Positions 9,788-55,587 of a stretch of 64,000 bases of DNA are shown here, one piece after another. Source of the stretch: a virus (lineage: Duplodnaviria; Caudoviricetes). The stretch's first letter is position 1, and every line of letters begins with the position of its first letter. The stretch is taken from positions 880-64,879 of the IMG/VR virus record IMGVR_UViG_3300034111_001607; one strand, given 5' to 3'. The position numbers and the translations under genes were made by a program. Under the pieces are notes generated by a model. The model was given only the letters and a program-made list of their open reading frames with translations. It was not told where the DNA came from and made no database searches.

Positions 9788-12169
9788 TTAACTTGCACAT
9801 ATTATAAATGTTAAAAGCTCTTCGTAACGAAGACCATAAATATAAGTTTTTTTATCTTCTTTTAAATCTTTACAAAACAAACCGTAACTTTCAGGGGTTA
9901 AACCATTATCAATAAAAACCTGTGCTACTTGTTGTGCAATAAAACCTGCGTGTAATCTTGCACTCTTACCCTTACTTTTAACTGCGTCTTTAAATTTAAA
10001 CATACAACCCATTGTTTTTAGTGTTTGTGCAACTGTGATTTCAGTAGGGGTAAAACCTCTTATATCTTGTTTTGCATTTTCATCTGAAGTGTTGATTGCA
10101 CCAGTTGTTGCAAAAACAGTAGTATATCTGCGTGCAGCCTCTCCAAGTGCAGTTGTATTGTCTACAATTGGACGTACTACGTTACCATTTCTTATTTGTA
10201 TTCCACCACCGCTTGCAACCGCTATTGACAAGTCTCCAATACTTGAATTGGAAAAAGTTGTTGCAAGACCTGCACTACCTACAACTCTTAAAAGCCCACC
10301 ATCTGTTGTTTTTAGCTCTTGATGAATAAAAGGGTATCTACCACTATTTTTATAACCTAAGATACCTTGCATTTGTGGGTTGAAATCACCCAAGCTATTT
10401 CCTGTGAAAGTTCCACTTCCTGAAAAATTGATATTTGCAAATTCTCCATTTACACCCCAGCCACCATTGTTTATTGAACTTGCATTATTTGCATCAATAG
10501 TCGCACCATTAAATTGATAAAAGCCATGACTAATATTGCCATCTGCTATTACACTATCAGCATCAAGGTTTGCACCATCGGTGGCAGAATAACCATTTGC
10601 ACCATTATTAAAAGATTTTGTACTATCACATAACATTCTTGTTGTACCTCTTCCTTCGTACCCATTTGTTAAATTTCCAACTGCAATACTTGAAGCTACA
10701 TTCAACATTGATAAACTTGTTGACCAGTAGCCATTTAACCCATTGCCACAAGAATAACCAAGTGAAAAAGCAGAATTACTACACTCATCTCCAATACAAC
10801 CGTCCTCCCCATTGCCATTTGTAATTGAAAATTTTGCACGCATATTACTTGAACCTGAGGTATAAATACCTCTTTTTCTGTTCGCACAAGAAATAATAAA
10901 GTTCATTGAAGCAAAAGCAGAACCTTCCATTGCAAAACCTTGTTCACCCCAACCATAAAGACATATATCAGCGTTTGTTCCAACTCCACCACCACCCATA
11001 GCAGTTGTATTTGAACTTGCACCACCAATAATTCTTGGTGCATTAATAACTATACCGTGTGCTCCTTGTGTTCCAGTGCCTGCTAATACATCCCAGTCTC
11101 CAATAAATACTGCACCGCCTGAAAAATCAAAAAATGCTCCATTATGAAATGAAAAGCCATTATCTCCAGTCCATTGAATTTTTGTAGGTAATTTTTTAAT
11201 AGTTACACCGGTTATTGACGCTAAACTTGGTGGGGTTGCACCGTGATATGTATTATTTACTGTTATTGTACTTGCGGTAACATTAGTCACTTTCCAACAA
11301 CCTGTTACCCATACTACATTTGTTGTAGAAGGCACAAGCGTTCTTATTAATACAAAATCGTTAATTGCTAAACCTGTAGTGCTTGAAATACCACTAAAAG
11401 TAACTGCATAATTTTTTGCACTTCCAGTATAAGAAGAACCTGTTGCACTATATGAAGTTCCACTTGTAAAAATAAATTTTAATGCGTTACCACTACAACC
11501 CTTAACATATCTTTCAGTGGTATAGTTATAAGAACCAGCAGTTACTATAATTTCACAATCAACTGCTTGTATATGATGACCATCAAAAGGCGGTATTCCG
11601 TTGTATACATAACTTTTACTTACTCCAAAATCAACATTTTTATTAAAAGCAATAGCATTATTAATTGCCGTTGTGTCATCTGTTACGCCATCGCCTACCG
11701 CTCCAAAATCTTGAACCGTTATTTGATTTGAAGCATTATTTAAAAGCAAATAAGCCGTGCCGTTATATCTAACATAAGCATCTTTATTCGGTGAAAGTTC
11801 GCCACCAGTTAATGGAGTTCCGCCCTCTGTTAGTAAATTTACGGCAGTTTGTCCGCTGACTGAAATTGTTGAAGCACCTGTATTTGCATTTAATGGACGG
11901 AAGCGAATTAATCCGCCGTTGATATTTTCATAAACTTCATAACGCCCACTATCTGCTATTAAATTATAAGCATTTACAATTCCAGTGTCTTCAAAAAAAT
12001 CTGCTGCGTTAATGTATGTTGTTAAAAGGCTTGCGTTTTGCTCGTAATCTGTAGTTGATGAAATACCATTATTAACAGATTGCATCATTAATTCAAGTGT
12101 TTTTGGTGCATCATTGAAATTATCCGTTGTAAGAGTAGTGCCGTTAGGAAGTGGATATTTATTAGCCAT
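9788..12169 (-). CDS. Tailspike, beta-helix with C-terminal intramolecular chaperone (peptidase S74)
   Basis: VQDFGAVGDGVTDDTTAI, N/G-rich beta-helix repeats, NTSDENAKQDI...HAGFIAQ...LRYEEL. Confidence 0.9.
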   Translation of the reverse strand: MANKYPLPNGTTLTTDNFNDAPKTLELMMQSVNNGISSTTDYEQNASLLTTYINAADFFEDTGIVNAYNLIADSGRYEVYENINGGLIRFRPLNANTGASTISVSGQTAVNLLTEGGTPLTGGELSPNKDAYVRYNGTAYLLLNNASNQITVQDFGAVGDGVTDDTTAINNAIAFNKNVDFGVSKSYVYNGIPPFDGHHIQAVDCEIIVTAGSYNYTTERYVKGCSGNALKFIFTSGTSYSATGSSYTGSAKNYAVTFSGISSTTGLAINDFVLIRTLVPSTTNVVWVTGCWKVTNVTASTITVNNTYHGATPPSLASITGVTIKKLPTKIQWTGDNGFSFHNGAFFDFSGGAVFIGDWDVLAGTGTQGAHGIVINAPRIIGGASSNTTAMGGGGVGTNADICLYGWGEQGFAMEGSAFASMNFIISCANRKRGIYTSGSSNMRAKFSITNGNGEDGCIGDECSNSAFSLGYSCGNGLNGYWSTSLSMLNVASSIAVGNLTNGYEGRGTTRMLCDSTKSFNNGANGYSATDGANLDADSVIADGNISHGFYQFNGATIDANNASSINNGGWGVNGEFANINFSGSGTFTGNSLGDFNPQMQGILGYKNSGRYPFIHQELKTTDGGLLRVVGSAGLATTFSNSSIGDLSIAVASGGGIQIRNGNVVRPIVDNTTALGEAARRYTTVFATTGAINTSDENAKQDIRGFTPTEITVAQTLKTMGCMFKFKDAVKSKGKSARLHAGFIAQQVAQVFIDNGLTPESYGLFCKDLKEDKKTYIYGLRYEELLTFIICAS

Positions 12170-12207
12170 TTTTCTTTATATTTGTTATATAAAGACTTAT
12201 ACAATAT

Positions 12208-12268
12208 CAAATCCGCCATTCAATTTTTTAACCTGTATTGAAAAACAGGCGGACTTGTTGCCAAGTCC
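12208..12268 (-). ncRNA. Candidate cis-regulatory pseudoknot/switch RNA, copy A
   Basis: 27/29-nt core shared with 55071-55099, with a compensatory pair change; lies just downstream of a TTGACT promoter. Confidence 0.6.
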
Positions 12269-12274
12269 ATATAA

Positions 12275-12302
12275 GAAATAATTTACTCTTTTATAAAGTC
12301 AA
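12275..12302 (-). promoter_or_regulatory. sigma70-type promoter for the tailspike/fibre/lysis genes
   Basis: TTGACT-N16-TATTTC. Confidence 0.45.
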
Positions 12303-12997
12303 GTAAAAATCGCAAAACCATTGTCTGTTAATATTGAATACCCATCATCATTTGTTATTACATATTGGTATTCATTATCATTAAAAAATTGATATAATAT
12401 TTGAACATGAGCAGGTTTTAATTTATTAATCAAACATTTAATAGTTTCAAGCGTTGCATTCCCAAGTGTTGTTTGTCCTAAAATAGCAGTGCCAAGCGTG
12501 TCGCCTTTTAAATAAAATGGCAGTGTAATAATCATTGTATAATTAATGACTTCACTACTCAAAAGAATTATTCCTAAAATAGCATTCCCAAGTGTAGCCT
12601 GCTCCGAATTACTTTGAATTTCAAAATCTATAATTTCAAATAAATTTAAAATATATTCAACTTGTTTTTTAAAGTTTCCTTGCAACCACGCAAATTTGAG
12701 TAAAATATTTCTTCTTCTTAATTCAATTGTATCCTCAATAGGCAAACAATCATCTGGTATTCCAACAAGGGTTTCATAAAAATCTAACAAAGCATTTGCC
12801 TTGTTAATATCCATTTCCGTTTCAAGCAATATCAAATTATTTCTAAAATCTAAAAATAAAGTTGCTAATGCTTGTAAAATTTGCCTTAATGGGTGTCCGT
12901 CAATATTTTTTCCTGAATGCAATATATCATCACGCAAATATTGTGCTAAAATATTTACCTGCTCTTGTTTTGTTATTATTTTCAATTTTGTAGGCAT
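12299..12997 (-). CDS. Baseplate wedge protein (Mu gp48/DUF2313-like)
   Basis: LLDFYETLVGIPDDC, TIELRR and CLINKLKPAH motifs; follows baseplate J. Confidence 0.85.
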   Translation of the reverse strand: MPTKLKIITKQEQVNILAQYLRDDILHSGKNIDGHPLRQILQALATLFLDFRNNLILLETEMDINKANALLDFYETLVGIPDDCLPIEDTIELRRRNILLKFAWLQGNFKKQVEYILNLFEIIDFEIQSNSEQATLGNAILGIILLSSEVINYTMIITLPFYLKGDTLGTAILGQTTLGNATLETIKCLINKLKPAHVQILYQFFNDNEYQYVITNDDGYSILTDNGFAIFT

Positions 12998-27632: not shown

Positions 27633-29036
27633 TTAAGATATGTAACCAACTACAATCCCTTCTTGACGGACGATGTTACCACCAATGTAGTCAATCATAC
27701 CATACACATTGAGCCCATCAACAAGTCTGTCTTTGAAGCTATCATCAAGCCCCACTTCCCTTGTTGTTGTTCTTGTAAGCGTATAAGCATCACGGAAGTT
27801 TGCAAATACTGCATAAGCCTTACCTGTATTTGTACCATCAATGATATAACCTTCGTTAATATCACCTGCCGCACTTGGGAAAGATTTATAGCCTGCAAAA
27901 CCATCGTGTTGAGACGCTGGCACAGACGCTGGGAAACTTTGAACACCAATTAATGGGAAAGTTCCATCAGCAGTTCTAATTCTTGCAATACCGTTTGTGT
28001 AATCAAAGTATTCAATTTTCAAGTGTCCATCAGAAGCAGGCTCGTTGTATATTTGTTGCAACGCTTGTCTGTCAATTAAACAAACCGCACCACGAAGATA
28101 CTCACTTTTCAAGCGTGAAACAAGAAGTGATACATCTGTCAAAGACAATGTATCCGCTACTTGCGTTGGAACAACTTGATTGGCTGGGAAAGTTAGTGCT
28201 TTTGGTAAAATACCTTGGATACCTTTACCAGATACTACTTTACCATTTAAAATCTTCCTTGCAATTTGTTTAGATAGTTGTACATCTAATGCACGCAATT
28301 CAGCGTCAATTGGATTTGAACGGTATTCACCTGCACGAATGCCGTGTATAACTGTGTCTGTGATGTAATTCCAAGCCTTAACTTTTTCAGGTTGAATATC
28401 AATTTGTCCCCTTTTGATAACATCTTTTTTTTGCTCAACAGACATACCTTCAAGAACTTCTTGCGGTGGTAGAACACTTATGTCAATTGTATCATATACA
28501 ACACCTTTAATAGAAGAGGCAGTTACTATATTTACAAGGTTCACAACAGGGGAGGAAGTTTGCAGGTTAATATCAATTTCACCAAGATTTCTCATTTCAC
28601 GCTGTAATGCACCAACACTTGTATTGTTATAAGAAACCAAAGATTTAAATACATCGCAGTCAATTTGTGCTTTTTCACCACTAATTGATTTTGCAATAGC
28701 GTCTTTTACTTCTGCTTTTTCCAAAATTGAAGTGTTTTCTCCACCACTCATCTTGCCTTGTGTCCTGCTTGATTTCTCAATTTCTTGAAATCTCAAGTCG
28801 TGTTCTTGCAATTTTTCATTGTTAGACTTTTGAATTTCAGCAACCTTAGCAACCTTTGCTTCCATTTTTTCTTCCATTGATTTTTCAATTTCTTCTTTTG
28901 ATTTTGCAATTTCAGCGTTTTTTACTTGAAATTCAACAAGTTTAGAAACTGATTTTGTTAGCTCAGCTTGGCTTTCCATTAATGCTGGAATTTGTGCCAA
29001 ATGTTCTGCCACTTTTTGTGGTATCATTTCGGACAT
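27633..29036 (-). CDS. Major capsid protein, HK97 fold
   Basis: N-terminal coiled-coil delta domain, ILNG...GIQGIL, AVFANFRDAY, GGNIV; follows the prohead protease. Confidence 0.88.
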   Translation of the reverse strand: MSEMIPQKVAEHLAQIPALMESQAELTKSVSKLVEFQVKNAEIAKSKEEIEKSMEEKMEAKVAKVAEIQKSNNEKLQEHDLRFQEIEKSSRTQGKMSGGENTSILEKAEVKDAIAKSISGEKAQIDCDVFKSLVSYNNTSVGALQREMRNLGEIDINLQTSSPVVNLVNIVTASSIKGVVYDTIDISVLPPQEVLEGMSVEQKKDVIKRGQIDIQPEKVKAWNYITDTVIHGIRAGEYRSNPIDAELRALDVQLSKQIARKILNGKVVSGKGIQGILPKALTFPANQVVPTQVADTLSLTDVSLLVSRLKSEYLRGAVCLIDRQALQQIYNEPASDGHLKIEYFDYTNGIARIRTADGTFPLIGVQSFPASVPASQHDGFAGYKSFPSAAGDINEGYIIDGTNTGKAYAVFANFRDAYTLTRTTTREVGLDDSFKDRLVDGLNVYGMIDYIGGNIVRQEGIVVGYIS

Positions 29037-49541: not shown

Positions 49542-49548
49542 AAATCAA

Positions 49549-50085
49549 TCAATTAAATAAATTAGCTATTTTCTCCCAAGTTTCAGGGGTTTGTTCTTCT
49601 AAAAGGTTTGTGTTAAAATCACAAAACTTTCCAACTGGAAGTATATGAATTATTTGGTGTATTTCTAAACCTTTTGCAATATAAATATGGTCTTTTTTGT
49701 TTGTATTTAGTAAATTAAGAACATCAAAAAGTGTTATTGGTCTGCCAAGAATTTGAAAATCTATTACCTTGCCGTGGTTTTGTCGTATTTTATCGGTTAA
49801 ATACAATTGCATATTCCCCCAGTATTCTGTTACAAAAACTTGTTTATACACATCGTTATAATTAGTCGGTTTACTCGCTCCACAAGCAATACCGATTGCT
49901 GAACCATTTATAAAATCTCCTTTAAAATTTACATAGACTCTACATAAATTACCTGCATCGGTATTGCCAAAATTAAAAAACTCCCTCTCCAAAGCCTCAT
50001 CTAAGGTTTTTGCCGTGGGGTTATTATTCATAATTACTTTTTCCCATATCTTTTTGTAGTGTGGGTTTTGTAGTGCGTTTTGCAT
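49549..50085 (-). CDS. Hypothetical protein, tandem paralogue 2
   Basis: Shares KKIWEKVIMN, ILGRPITLFDVL and EEQTPETWEKIANL with 50089-50547. Confidence 0.7.
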   Translation of the reverse strand: MQNALQNPHYKKIWEKVIMNNNPTAKTLDEALEREFFNFGNTDAGNLCRVYVNFKGDFINGSAIGIACGASKPTNYNDVYKQVFVTEYWGNMQLYLTDKIRQNHGKVIDFQILGRPITLFDVLNLLNTNKKDHIYIAKGLEIHQIIHILPVGKFCDFNTNLLEEQTPETWEKIANLFN

Positions 50086-50088
50086 AAA

Positions 50089-50547
50089 TCAATCAATTAA
50101 ATTAGCTATTTTCTCCCAAGTTTCAGGTGTTTGTTCTTCAATTAAATTACTTTTATTGTTTATATCGCATATCTTTTTTACAAAATATTGGAATATATCA
50201 TTAGAAGTATTGCGTGTGACATCAATATTACACAACACAACACAGTTGGTCATTAACGCAAACTCACCGTTCTCTATATTTTTTTGTAACAATTTTAAAA
50301 CATCAAAAAGAGTTATTGGTCTTCCTAAGATATTATAGGTTTTGTCGTAAATTTTTCCCATCTTATTAGACATATCAAAATTTACAATATTTATATGTGA
50401 CGTCGTCTTTGTTAAACCATAATAACACCCAACTTGTGAAAATTCTAATACCAAAGCCTCCTCCAAAGACTCCGCCTCTGGGTGTCTATTCATTATTACT
50501 TTTTCCCAAATCTTTTTGAAGTGGAGGTTGTTAAGTGCTTCTTGCAT
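50089..50547 (-). CDS. Hypothetical protein, tandem paralogue 1
   Basis: Same three conserved blocks as 49549-50085. Confidence 0.7.
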   Translation of the reverse strand: MQEALNNLHFKKIWEKVIMNRHPEAESLEEALVLEFSQVGCYYGLTKTTSHINIVNFDMSNKMGKIYDKTYNILGRPITLFDVLKLLQKNIENGEFALMTNCVVLCNIDVTRNTSNDIFQYFVKKICDINNKSNLIEEQTPETWEKIANLID

Positions 50548-50641
50548 AATATTTTTGATTAATTATTTTCTTAAAGTGATTGGTATCATTTCAGAGCAAA
50601 GGATTTTTATTTCTTGTTTTATCATAAACATATTAAATAGT

Positions 50642-54366: not shown

Positions 54367-54645
54367 ATGATAACAGAAAAACAAGTAGAGAATTTTTTTG
54401 ATATTCATTGTGTAGAATATGATTATAAACAATATCAATTTACATTTACACATAGAAAGAAAAGGAGAGCAATTGCTATCATTGCTTATTCAGCAAGTTG
54501 TTACACTCAAAGTGAAATAGAAAAATGTATAAAGAAAGCAATAAGATTATTTCATAGACAATATATTTTAAAAGAAAAATGTTATTTTATTAATTACCGT
54601 AATATTTCAAAAATTTTGCCGAAACCTCGTTTTATTCACTATTAA
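54367..54645 (+). CDS. Hypothetical protein
   Basis: Coupled ORF. Confidence 0.45.
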   Translation: MITEKQVENFFDIHCVEYDYKQYQFTFTHRKKRRAIAIIAYSASCYTQSEIEKCIKKAIRLFHRQYILKEKCYFINYRNISKILPKPRFIHY

Positions 54646-54860: not shown

Positions 54861-54867
54861 ATATAAT

Positions 54868-54941
54868 ATTCACAGGCTGGATTTGAACCAGCGTCATTAA
54901 GTTATTACCCCTAATATGCTTCCAGACTACACCACTGTCAA
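54868..54941 (-). tRNA. Aberrant tRNA-like element (Met/Ile-like; pseudo-tRNA or decoy)
   Basis: Cloverleaf with T arm GCTGG-TTCAAAT-CCAGC and D arm GTGT-AGTCTGGAA-GCAT; 8-nt anticodon loop GGTAATAA; G3:G70 mismatch; no CCA. Confidence 0.65.
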
Positions 54942-54951
54942 TATCTTGGAT

Positions 54952-54980
54952 ATTATAAGATTCTACTTTTTTAATGTCAA
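54952..54980 (-). promoter_or_regulatory. Perfect sigma70 consensus promoter for the tRNA-like/ncRNA transcript
   Basis: TTGACA-N17-TATAAT. Confidence 0.85.
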
Positions 54981-55019: not shown

Positions 55020-55043
55020 TATTCATAATTCTTGCAAGGAATT

Positions 55044-55117
55044 GTACCATAATCAAAAGTTATGGTACACCCTCTTTTTCAATAGAGGTTAAAAAATTGG
55101 AAGGGTGTACTATTAAC
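55044..55117 (+). ncRNA. Candidate cis-regulatory pseudoknot/switch RNA, copy B
   Basis: Same core and architecture as 12208-12268. Confidence 0.6.
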
Positions 55118-55131
55118 TTATATAAACGATT

Positions 55132-55587
55132 ATGTCAAAAGATATTGATTTTTCTTTTCAAAAAGAACTAAGGCGGGATATAACAAAACTTCAACAAGAA
55201 CTTGAACGCAAGCAGAGTATTTTAAATAAATACCGAAATGAAATGCCAACATTAAATCTTAATGAATTTGAATACTTATATTTCACAGATGAATTTGTAC
55301 TTGAAAAAACAAAAAGAGCAGGATTTTGGTTAAGATGTGAAAAAGCACAAAAAATAATATACGATTTAAAAGATATGTATAATATTGACGGTGTGTTGAA
55401 ATTAGACAAATTTTCAAAAACTAAAATGTTTTCAGGACTATATTTACATTATGCAGAGTGGCTTGGAGAAGAGTATTACAAGTCTGCAAAAATACAAATA
55501 TTTGAAGTATTGCGTAAGCATTCTCTTGAATTAGAATGTTATGTAACAACTTATGGAGATATTGCTACTATACTTGGTGTAATTTAA
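55132..55587 (+). CDS. Hypothetical protein
   Basis: 151-aa ORF directly downstream of RNA element B. Confidence 0.6.
   Translation: MSKDIDFSFQKELRRDITKLQQELERKQSILNKYRNEMPTLNLNEFEYLYFTDEFVLEKTKRAGFWLRCEKAQKIIYDLKDMYNIDGVLKLDKFSKTKMFSGLYLHYAEWLGEEYYKSAKIQIFEVLRKHSLELECYVTTYGDIATILGVI

Follow-up and report, generated by a model that had tools for sequence, protein, structure and literature searches.

What kind of RNA is the short element that stands twice in the DNA of this freshwater phage, does it belong to a known class, and what could it do ahead of the genes which it precedes? A first reading of the letters described it as a conserved two-state pseudoknot and suggested an undescribed riboswitch, protein-responsive switch or antitermination RNA. 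The window, i.e., the entire stretch of 64,000 nucleotides analysed here, comprises bases 880-64879 of a 64,879-bp IMG/VR virus record (IMGVR_UViG_3300034111_001607) with direct terminal repeats at its ends. By its genes the virus is a phage with a contractile tail: it encodes a tail sheath, a tape measure and the Mu-type baseplate proteins gp46, J and gp48, in addition tail fibres, an amidase, a large terminase (TerL), a ribonucleotide reductase and a replication initiator. The G+C content is 30.8%. TerL is less than 24% identical to that of any cultured phage, and cultured-phage DNA contained nothing similar to locus A or locus B. Near-identical DNA is present in metagenomes of lakes and other waters from 22 studies; among the 24 runs listed with the phage there is no RNA run.

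Copy A (12208-12268, minus strand) is located between the gp48-like baseplate gene (12299-12997) and a gene for a tail fibre of 793 aa (9788-12169, minus strand). Its distance from the baseplate stop codon is 30 nt. Copy B (55043-55119, plus strand) is positioned 13 nt 5' of an ORF of 151 aa (55132-55587, plus strand), which leads a plus-strand block containing a Bro-N protein and the replication initiator; the nearest upstream gene on the same strand ends at 54645. Each copy is co-oriented with its own downstream genes. The parts of both copies are collected in Table 1. A tRNA-Ile with the anticodon AAU (54867-54942, minus strand) is divergent from copy B and sits directly behind a perfect TTGACA-17-TATAAT promoter (54952-54980).

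Table 1. Parts of copies A and B of the element, in window coordinates.
Copy	Feature	Positions	Strand	Remarks
A	-35-like word CTTGACTTTATAAAA	12289-12303	-	extends over the stop codon of baseplate gene 12299-12997; -10 hexamer at 16-18 nt absent
A	hairpin 1 (P2-like)	12251-12268	-	arm a GGACUUG, loop GCAA, arm a' CAAGUCC
A	H-type pseudoknot	12219-12249	-	S1 12245-12249 with 12232-12236; S2 12237-12242 with 12219-12224
A	knot loops	12243-12244; 12225-12231	-	U-rich loop; A-rich loop
A	tail UGGCGGAUUUG	12208-12218	-	a2 part 12208-12217 pairs with 12248-12257 (outer helix)
A	downstream platform	12173-12199	-	a'' UAAGUCU (12193-12199); hairpin H3, 12187-12195 with 12173-12181; predicted folds only
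A	hairpin H3	ends 4 nt ahead of AUG 12167-12169	-	predicted fold
B	-35-like word CTTGACTTTTTAAAA	54991-55005	+	no -10 hexamer at 16-18 nt
B	hairpin 1	55043-55069	+	arm a 55043-55052, loop 55053-55059, arm a' 55060-55069
B	pseudoknot	55071-55101	+	S1 55071-55075 with 55084-55088; S2 55078-55083 with 55096-55101 (one U-G pair); A-rich loop 55089-55095
B	a2 segment	55102-55119	+	pairs with 55057-55073; 17-bp outer helix, one bulge
B	GAUUAUG	55128-55134	+	spans the AUG that opens ORF 55132-55587; complement of CAUAAUC of arm a (55048-55054)

The 29-nt core has exactly two matches in the window, 12221-12249 (minus) and 55071-55099 (plus), with none expected from 100 shuffles; the whole record contains the same two and no more. 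The two copies differ at two positions which constitute a G-C to C-G swap in stem S1. The stems S1 (CCUSU/ASAGG) and S2 (UUCAAU/AUUGRA), a U-rich first loop and an A-rich third loop would make up the pseudoknot unit. The variable pair of S2 is U-A in copy A, U-G in copy B and again U-A in the relative L005. All 11 pairs of both stems are standard in three distinct sequences, with one compensatory pair and one change from U-A to U-G, and the G-U pairs of the element work on the sense strand only. The sequence-only reading had asserted the recurrence of the core, the compensatory nature of its two differences, the H-type pairing of S1 with S2 and the fit of the G-U pairs to the transcribed strand; all four assertions stand.

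Within this lineage the support for S1 amounts to one compensatory pair because there are only three distinct sequences, and 156 of 500 shuffles do equally well. A generic descriptor of the knot identifies only loci A and B in the window; since shuffled windows yield 1.15 matches on average, the shape alone is weak evidence. Compared with shuffles both stretches fold better (z = -3.4 and -3.6).

The flanks of A and B have no common sequence, yet each gives a 5' hairpin, of 7 bp in A and of 10 bp in B, and in A and B alike the 3' arm of this hairpin together with the first bases of S1 is complementary to a stretch past S2. The 3' arm a' has two possible partners in either copy, the 5' arm a and the tail segment a2. 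State 1 consists of the folded hairpin together with the pseudoknot; state 2 consists of the outer helix a':a2, which uses up 2-3 bases of S1. This helix has 8 aligned pairs; 5 are compensatory and the pairing is 100%, a result matched by 2 of 500 shuffles. This bears out the earlier proposition that the flanks differ in sequence and keep the same logic, i.e., pairing of the hairpin's 3' arm with the sequence behind the core. Because the linker after S2 has only 3 nt, the geometry of H-type knots suggests that the outer helix is unable to close around a coaxial stack of S1 and S2. The predicted energies, in which a pseudoknot bonus is not counted, are -31.6 kcal/mol for state 1 vs -29.6 kcal/mol for state 2 in copy A, i.e., within 2 kcal/mol, and -23.5 vs -31.4 kcal/mol in copy B, where state 2 is favoured by about 8. 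For copy A a rod of about 32 bp is predicted. Thus, the copies are a real, constrained RNA element, and the conserved pairing potential supports a predicted structure that is cis-acting, pseudoknotted and two-state.

Both copies offer a link to the start codon which follows. In copy B, state 2 sets free the word CAUAAUC, which is perfectly complementary to the GAUUAUG around the start codon (P about 0.013-0.015). L005 retains this pair of words, though the gene differs past the first four codons. In copy A, a 9-bp hairpin remains in the predicted state 1 and ends 4 nt 5' of the AUG; in the predicted state 2 the whole 5' leader pairs with the 5' arm of H3 and H3 is opened. The complementarity between leader and H3 arm is not significant alone (P = 0.28).

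Contigs of X2, X6 and X11 cover the element with 17-36 differences from the window over 801 positions (512 in X6; the 36 are those of X11). The differences listed leave the segment 12152-12257 untouched; the single position that they affect inside the element is base 12258 in the hairpin loop, which is also the only variant of hairpin 1 of copy A seen in related lake populations; X2 and X6 have an extra base behind 12275 and a changed 12286. A 574-nt contig of X11 carries a B-like core with other flanks again. Read by eye, its 30-nt ends allow a hairpin and a partly complementary 3' segment. In X8, two 67-nt contigs join across 73 nt (12181 to 12255; 12193 to 12267), with flanks of only 25-30 nt, and no X8 contig with the element was found. 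The element thus looks dispensable at site A, a conclusion of low certainty given the short flanks. Words of the type TCTT(T)ATAT flank the 73-nt segment which is skipped in X8. Behind copy B the downstream gene is swapped in L005.

Pattern scans of IMG/VR yielded no match for the core, and a pattern scan for AT-rich wcaG-like variants likewise gave none. A scan with a free S2 returned 12 core matches which were rejected, as none has an S2 partner. Among five matches of the core in a metagenome scan two are close relatives, L004 and L005, and the other three are chance, as are all four matches of a genome scan. Searches with single proteins found no related loci. A profile of the baseplate protein led to 53 IMG/VR loci at up to 40% identity; in the records of 50 of these (L057, L058 and L060 left out) the Rfam wcaG model gave only 15-19 bits, in coding sequence, and the lineage model R3 (see below) gave 9 matches in all 53 loci, of which the best 6 all lie in coding sequence without an S1 partner. 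More distant homologues were not found in the IMG/VR, metagenome or genome collections scanned.

Is the RNA then undescribed, as had been supposed? At gathering scores a full Rfam scan reports only tRNA. A permissive scan of 141 nt around copy A against all 4227 families, however, identified wcaG (RF01761) with 26.8 bits and E = 0.0015, all other families having E >= 0.9; against the whole record copy A reached 28.3 bits (E = 7e-5). Both scores are under the gathering score of 42. For comparison, RF01761 scores 92.7 bits in S-CREM1 and 37.2 bits in S-SCSM1. Copy B had no wcaG match in Rfam at E <= 10. The wcaG motif is an orphan cis-regulatory or riboswitch candidate from marine metagenomes and T4-like cyanophages where it adjoins exopolysaccharide or high-light genes (Weinberg et al. 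2010, PMC2864571). The parts of the main text seen make no mention of a pseudoknot for wcaG (PMC2864571), and in the literature searched only cyanophage genome papers which repeat the guess of that study came up besides it.

The family model aligns to copy A as its last hairpin (P2), a pseudoknot unit and the UGGCG tail. P1 is placed over an AT-rich, promoter-like stretch and its pairing is poor. The Rfam consensus has the hairpins P1, P2 and P3, i.e., two knot units joined by P2, and only P2 and one unit are convincing here. The order in copy A is hairpin, CCGCC, S1, U-run, 6-bp stem, S1 partner, A-rich loop, stem partner and UGGCG; GCC and UGGCG delimit 37 nt in copy A as in wcaG units, and the four conserved wcaG words CCGCC, UUU, A-run and UGGCG are all present. 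Copy B keeps UUU and the A-run and has ACACCC/GGGUGU in place of CCGCC/GGCGG, words which are again mutually complementary. Both copies satisfy a descriptor of the wcaG knot (first loop 3, junction 1, S1 of 4 bp) and are 100% paired in it.

A pattern derived from the family consensus retrieved at least 120 IMG/VR loci (L072-L191); among the matches listed, 118 have enough flank and provide 101 distinct contexts of 119 nt and 51 distinct units of 47 nt. The invariance of GUUUC, AAAGA and GUGGCG in this set is not independent because the search pattern fixes these words. The wcaG of S-CREM1 and the 51 distinct units (among the matches listed) consist of CCGCC, S1, UUU, a 6-bp hairpin and UGGCG. 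The loop of the hairpin (P3) carries the S1 partner and an A-run, so that the 4 nt before UUU pair with 4 nt inside this loop. Pairing holds in 99.6% of the 510 cells of the 51 units (among the matches listed), with compensatory changes at 6 of the 10 pairs, counts that are inflated by relatedness. This comparison shows the core of the wcaG family to be a repeated unit with the predicted fold of an H-type pseudoknot.

Three covariance models were built: R1 from the 51 distinct wcaG units, R2 from a widened alignment, and R3 only from A, B, L004 and L005. R1 has 7 matches in the 64-kb window, and copy A leads them at full length (14.8 bits, E = 0.05); with the same model, true wcaG units from upstream positions reach 12.7-25 bits, and one reaches 40. 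Copy A is again first with R2 (14.7 bits, E = 0.12). A second R2 match at 28083-28131 was rejected as a copy of the element; it lies in a coding region and lacks the knot. Copy B was found in the window neither by R1 nor by R2. In the reverse direction, R3 was searched in 330 kb of 34 cyanophage-type loci, and the top 3 and altogether 9 of 20 matches are in register on wcaG units. The sequence-only reading had advised building a covariance model from both copies and searching with it. That reading had also named an Rfam hit as a result which would speak against it: copy A does match wcaG, yet only below the gathering score. What did not survive is the word undescribed, in view of the sub-threshold match, the common knot geometry and the CCGCC and UGGCG words. 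Judged by its sequence, copy A is one unit of the wcaG type that has diverged, and copy B is tied to wcaG only via copy A, through the common core. Because the Rfam match is only sub-threshold, the element is filed as a variant: it represents a novel form of this known orphan RNA, with a single unit, and by the Rfam threshold it is not a family member.

The arrangement of wcaG in the cyanophage-type loci deserves a description of its own. H-type pseudoknot units are strung together there in a tandem array; UGGYG and a linker hairpin come after each unit, and the Rfam motif corresponds to the end of the array. In 20 of the 34 loci R1 detected a second unit immediately before the last, and judged by eye three or four units make up some of the arrays. 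The closest long open frame on the upstream side stops 37-168 nt ahead of the last unit in 71 of 91 contexts (among the matches listed), the distances forming three clusters, and by eye its stop codon often overlaps S1 of the first unit. Because this frame ends just before or within the array, the array looks like a 3' trailer of the upstream gene. On the other side, a T-run of at least 5 follows UGGCG in 90 of 101 distinct contexts, with the motif 31-49 nt before the T-run; TAnnnT occurs within 4 nt past the T-run in 80 of 101 and TTGMMW-N15-19-TAnnnT in 63 of 101 contexts (all among the matches listed). The next ORF starts 65-88 nt past UGGCG in 62 of 100 contexts (among the matches listed). 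This segment reads as a putative terminator hairpin with promoter boxes, like the cassette known as PeSL. PeSLs are composite terminator/promoter sequences of T4-like phages which are reported to be implicated in indels and gene exchange (PMC4122927). With a stop codon on one side and a terminator-promoter cassette on the other, the arrays raise the question whether wcaG is a 5' leader in the first place. By eye, wcaG arrays often adjoin tRNA genes (L063 746-843, L095, L163, L085, L140): in S-CREM1 the motif is 47 nt before tRNA-Met, and in L095 and L163 a tRNA-like sequence comes after it.

Set against these arrays, the phage element, in its copy A, shares with wcaG the P2-like hairpin, CCGCC, the H-type pseudoknot with its UUU first loop, 6-bp second stem and A-rich third loop, and UGGCG; in addition the covariance models of either recognise the other. 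The differences are equally clear. The phage element has one unit and wcaG two (up to four by eye). In the phage S1 has 5 bp and no junction base, the third loop is 1 nt longer, and the outer helix comprises 10-17 bp, in contrast to at most 4-5 possible pairs in wcaG. A start codon follows the phage element whereas a terminator follows wcaG. The virus that carries it, a freshwater phage of 65 kb whose baseplate is of the Mu type, is no T4-like cyanophage, and the genes downstream are for a tail fibre and replication, in place of the exopolysaccharide or high-light neighbours reported for wcaG (PMC2864571). With PeSLs the phage copies have in common that a regulatory cassette is repeated at gene boundaries with indel and gene-swap variation adjoining it. 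PeSLs are terminator hairpins with promoter boxes (PMC4122927), unlike the phage repeat, which is the knot itself; in the cyanophage-type loci the PeSL-like cassette comes after the wcaG array.

Other pseudoknots and repeated phage RNAs invite comparison as well. PreQ1-I, SAM-II and SAM-V are small H-type pseudoknot riboswitches, and the element resembles them as an H-type pseudoknot of about 35 nt with an A-rich third loop in a leader. In contrast to these, it has no ligand-related genes downstream of either copy, and Rfam gave no match at E <= 10 to preQ1-I, SAM-II, SAM-V or other riboswitch families for either copy; the mismatch to the first three, already stated in the sequence-only reading, is confirmed. 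The pseudoknot in the leader of T4 gene 32 is a translational operator which acts through binding of the gene's own product. The likeness is one of description, an H-type pseudoknot in a phage mRNA leader, which in T4 governs downstream translation. With HK022 put and lambda nut the element shares the presence of two copies near divergent operon heads. The put RNAs of HK022, which render RNA polymerase resistant to downstream terminators, are two stem-loops without a pseudoknot; in the phage, by contrast, the competing strand is downstream of the element and no terminator was found after it within the scanned regions.

From where would the element be transcribed? A -35-like word, CTTGACTTTWTAAAA, is present 5' of both copies, with 16 such sites in the window vs 3.05 expected. 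A good -10 hexamer 16-18 nt downstream of it is found neither for copy A nor for copy B, which at 16 nt have only TATTTC and TATTCA; several of the 16 sites have TATAnn hexamers at 16-18 nt and are at the heads of gene blocks. Of the TTGACT promoters that had been placed just upstream of both copies, the -35-like half is there and a good -10 half was not found, so that they are no more than candidate promoters. Copy A may equally be an intercistronic element of a late transcript. The promoter-like family CTTGACWTTTNAAAA (16 window sites) heads most gene blocks, and several of its sites continue with TATATT and then a common GTATAACTAATA leader (repeat families D1-D3). Shine-Dalgarno-like words precede just 5 of the 46 genes, whose leaders are rich in A and T; the host probably starts translation without Shine-Dalgarno pairing.

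Presently, we prefer, tentatively, the reading that each copy is a single-unit RNA of the wcaG type whose helix-exchange platform would gate translation starts; gating of starts by such a platform is, in the model, the most likely output. Each copy would act in cis on the basis of one wcaG unit, composed of a P2-like hairpin, an H-type pseudoknot and a G-rich tail. A stabiliser of the knot, be it a small ligand, a protein or the folding order during transcription, would choose the state, and the state would set the access to the start of the first downstream gene. In copy B, state 2 would release CAUAAUC, which could then cover the start-codon GAUUAUG; in copy A, state 2 would open H3 immediately ahead of the AUG. 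Should start access indeed depend on the state, the response of the tail-fibre block would be opposite to that of the early block. An extended form of this proposal, i.e., a minimal single-unit wcaG sensor that feeds one signal into two opposite translational platforms such that the early replication block is active and the tail-fibre block silent while the knot is stabilised, and the reverse otherwise, is in our opinion unlikely. If true, a single RNA would serve as a timing switch, and its 60 nt would offer a handle on the signal sensed by the orphan wcaG class.

Other explanations have to be weighed against the gating of translation starts. The element might be a constitutive structural module that does not switch, a fixed stabiliser, insulator or processing site at operon boundaries, e.g., for an RNase III-type cut in the 17-32-bp rod or as a block to exonucleases; we consider this possible, if on the unlikely side. 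The 3'-trailer position of the cyanophage-type arrays between stop codon and terminator agrees with it (71 of 91 and 90 of 101 contexts among the matches listed, see above), and so do the start of copy A 30 nt past the baseplate stop codon, its predicted rod of about 32 bp and, tentatively, the variants of X8 which lack the element. Yet a fixed module needs one pairing, and here two mutually exclusive pairings are both kept through a complete change of sequence; copy B, moreover, is not behind a same-strand gene, the nearest ending at 54645. A role in transcription appears quite improbable, be it as an attenuator made of hairpin 1 and the U-run or as a put- or nut-like processive antiterminator heading two operons, even though a consensus scan calls both hairpins terminator-like, the two copies stand at the heads of divergent gene blocks and the cyanophage-type motif precedes a terminator T-run by 31-49 nt (among the matches listed). 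The U-run begins 4-5 nt past the stem and is the conserved UUU first loop of the wcaG pseudoknot, and the competing strand a2 is located downstream of it. Lying 3' of the U-run, a2 cannot act before the polymerase has passed. Hairpin 1 with the U-run was therefore rejected as a terminator, and no terminator is present after either copy in the scanned regions. On sequence grounds, control of translation starts is favoured over control of termination.

Could the repeat function as DNA? A PeSL-like recombination cassette or a site for a DNA-binding protein would be in keeping with a 34-nt inverted repeat 42.8 kb apart, with the 73-nt presence/absence variation in X8, the gene swap past copy B in L005 and the reported involvement of PeSLs in indels and gene exchange of T4-like phages (PMC4122927). 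However, the G-U pairs work on one strand only, S1 has a compensatory change and not a conserved half-site, and the element is homologous to an RNA motif whose covariation is strong; further, the core is conserved and the inverted flanks vary, the reverse of a transposon-like element. A function at the DNA level is highly doubtful on this account. Finally, short ORFs start from AUGs inside the element, and translation of such leader peptides would remodel the fold. Each copy has such an ORF, of 16 codons in A and 7 in B, and the frame in which S1 is read is identical. Their length and start position differ between the copies, the common codons are those of the conserved core, and no conserved ORF with an AUG start was seen by eye across wcaG units (contexts among the matches listed), which leaves a leader-peptide device barely credible.

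For wcaG, an orphan RNA class since 2010, the phage element represents a shorter, similar motif outside the cyanophages, with one knot, unusually clear competing helices and start codons as the likely output. As a single unit it is easier to probe and to mutate than the cyanophage arrays of two and, by eye, up to four units. Elsewhere in the window, two neighbouring minus-strand ORFs (49549-50085 and 50089-50547; window 49544-50549) have end stretches which are 77-93% identical (repeats D5, D11 and D16), and the pair looks like a tandem gene duplication.
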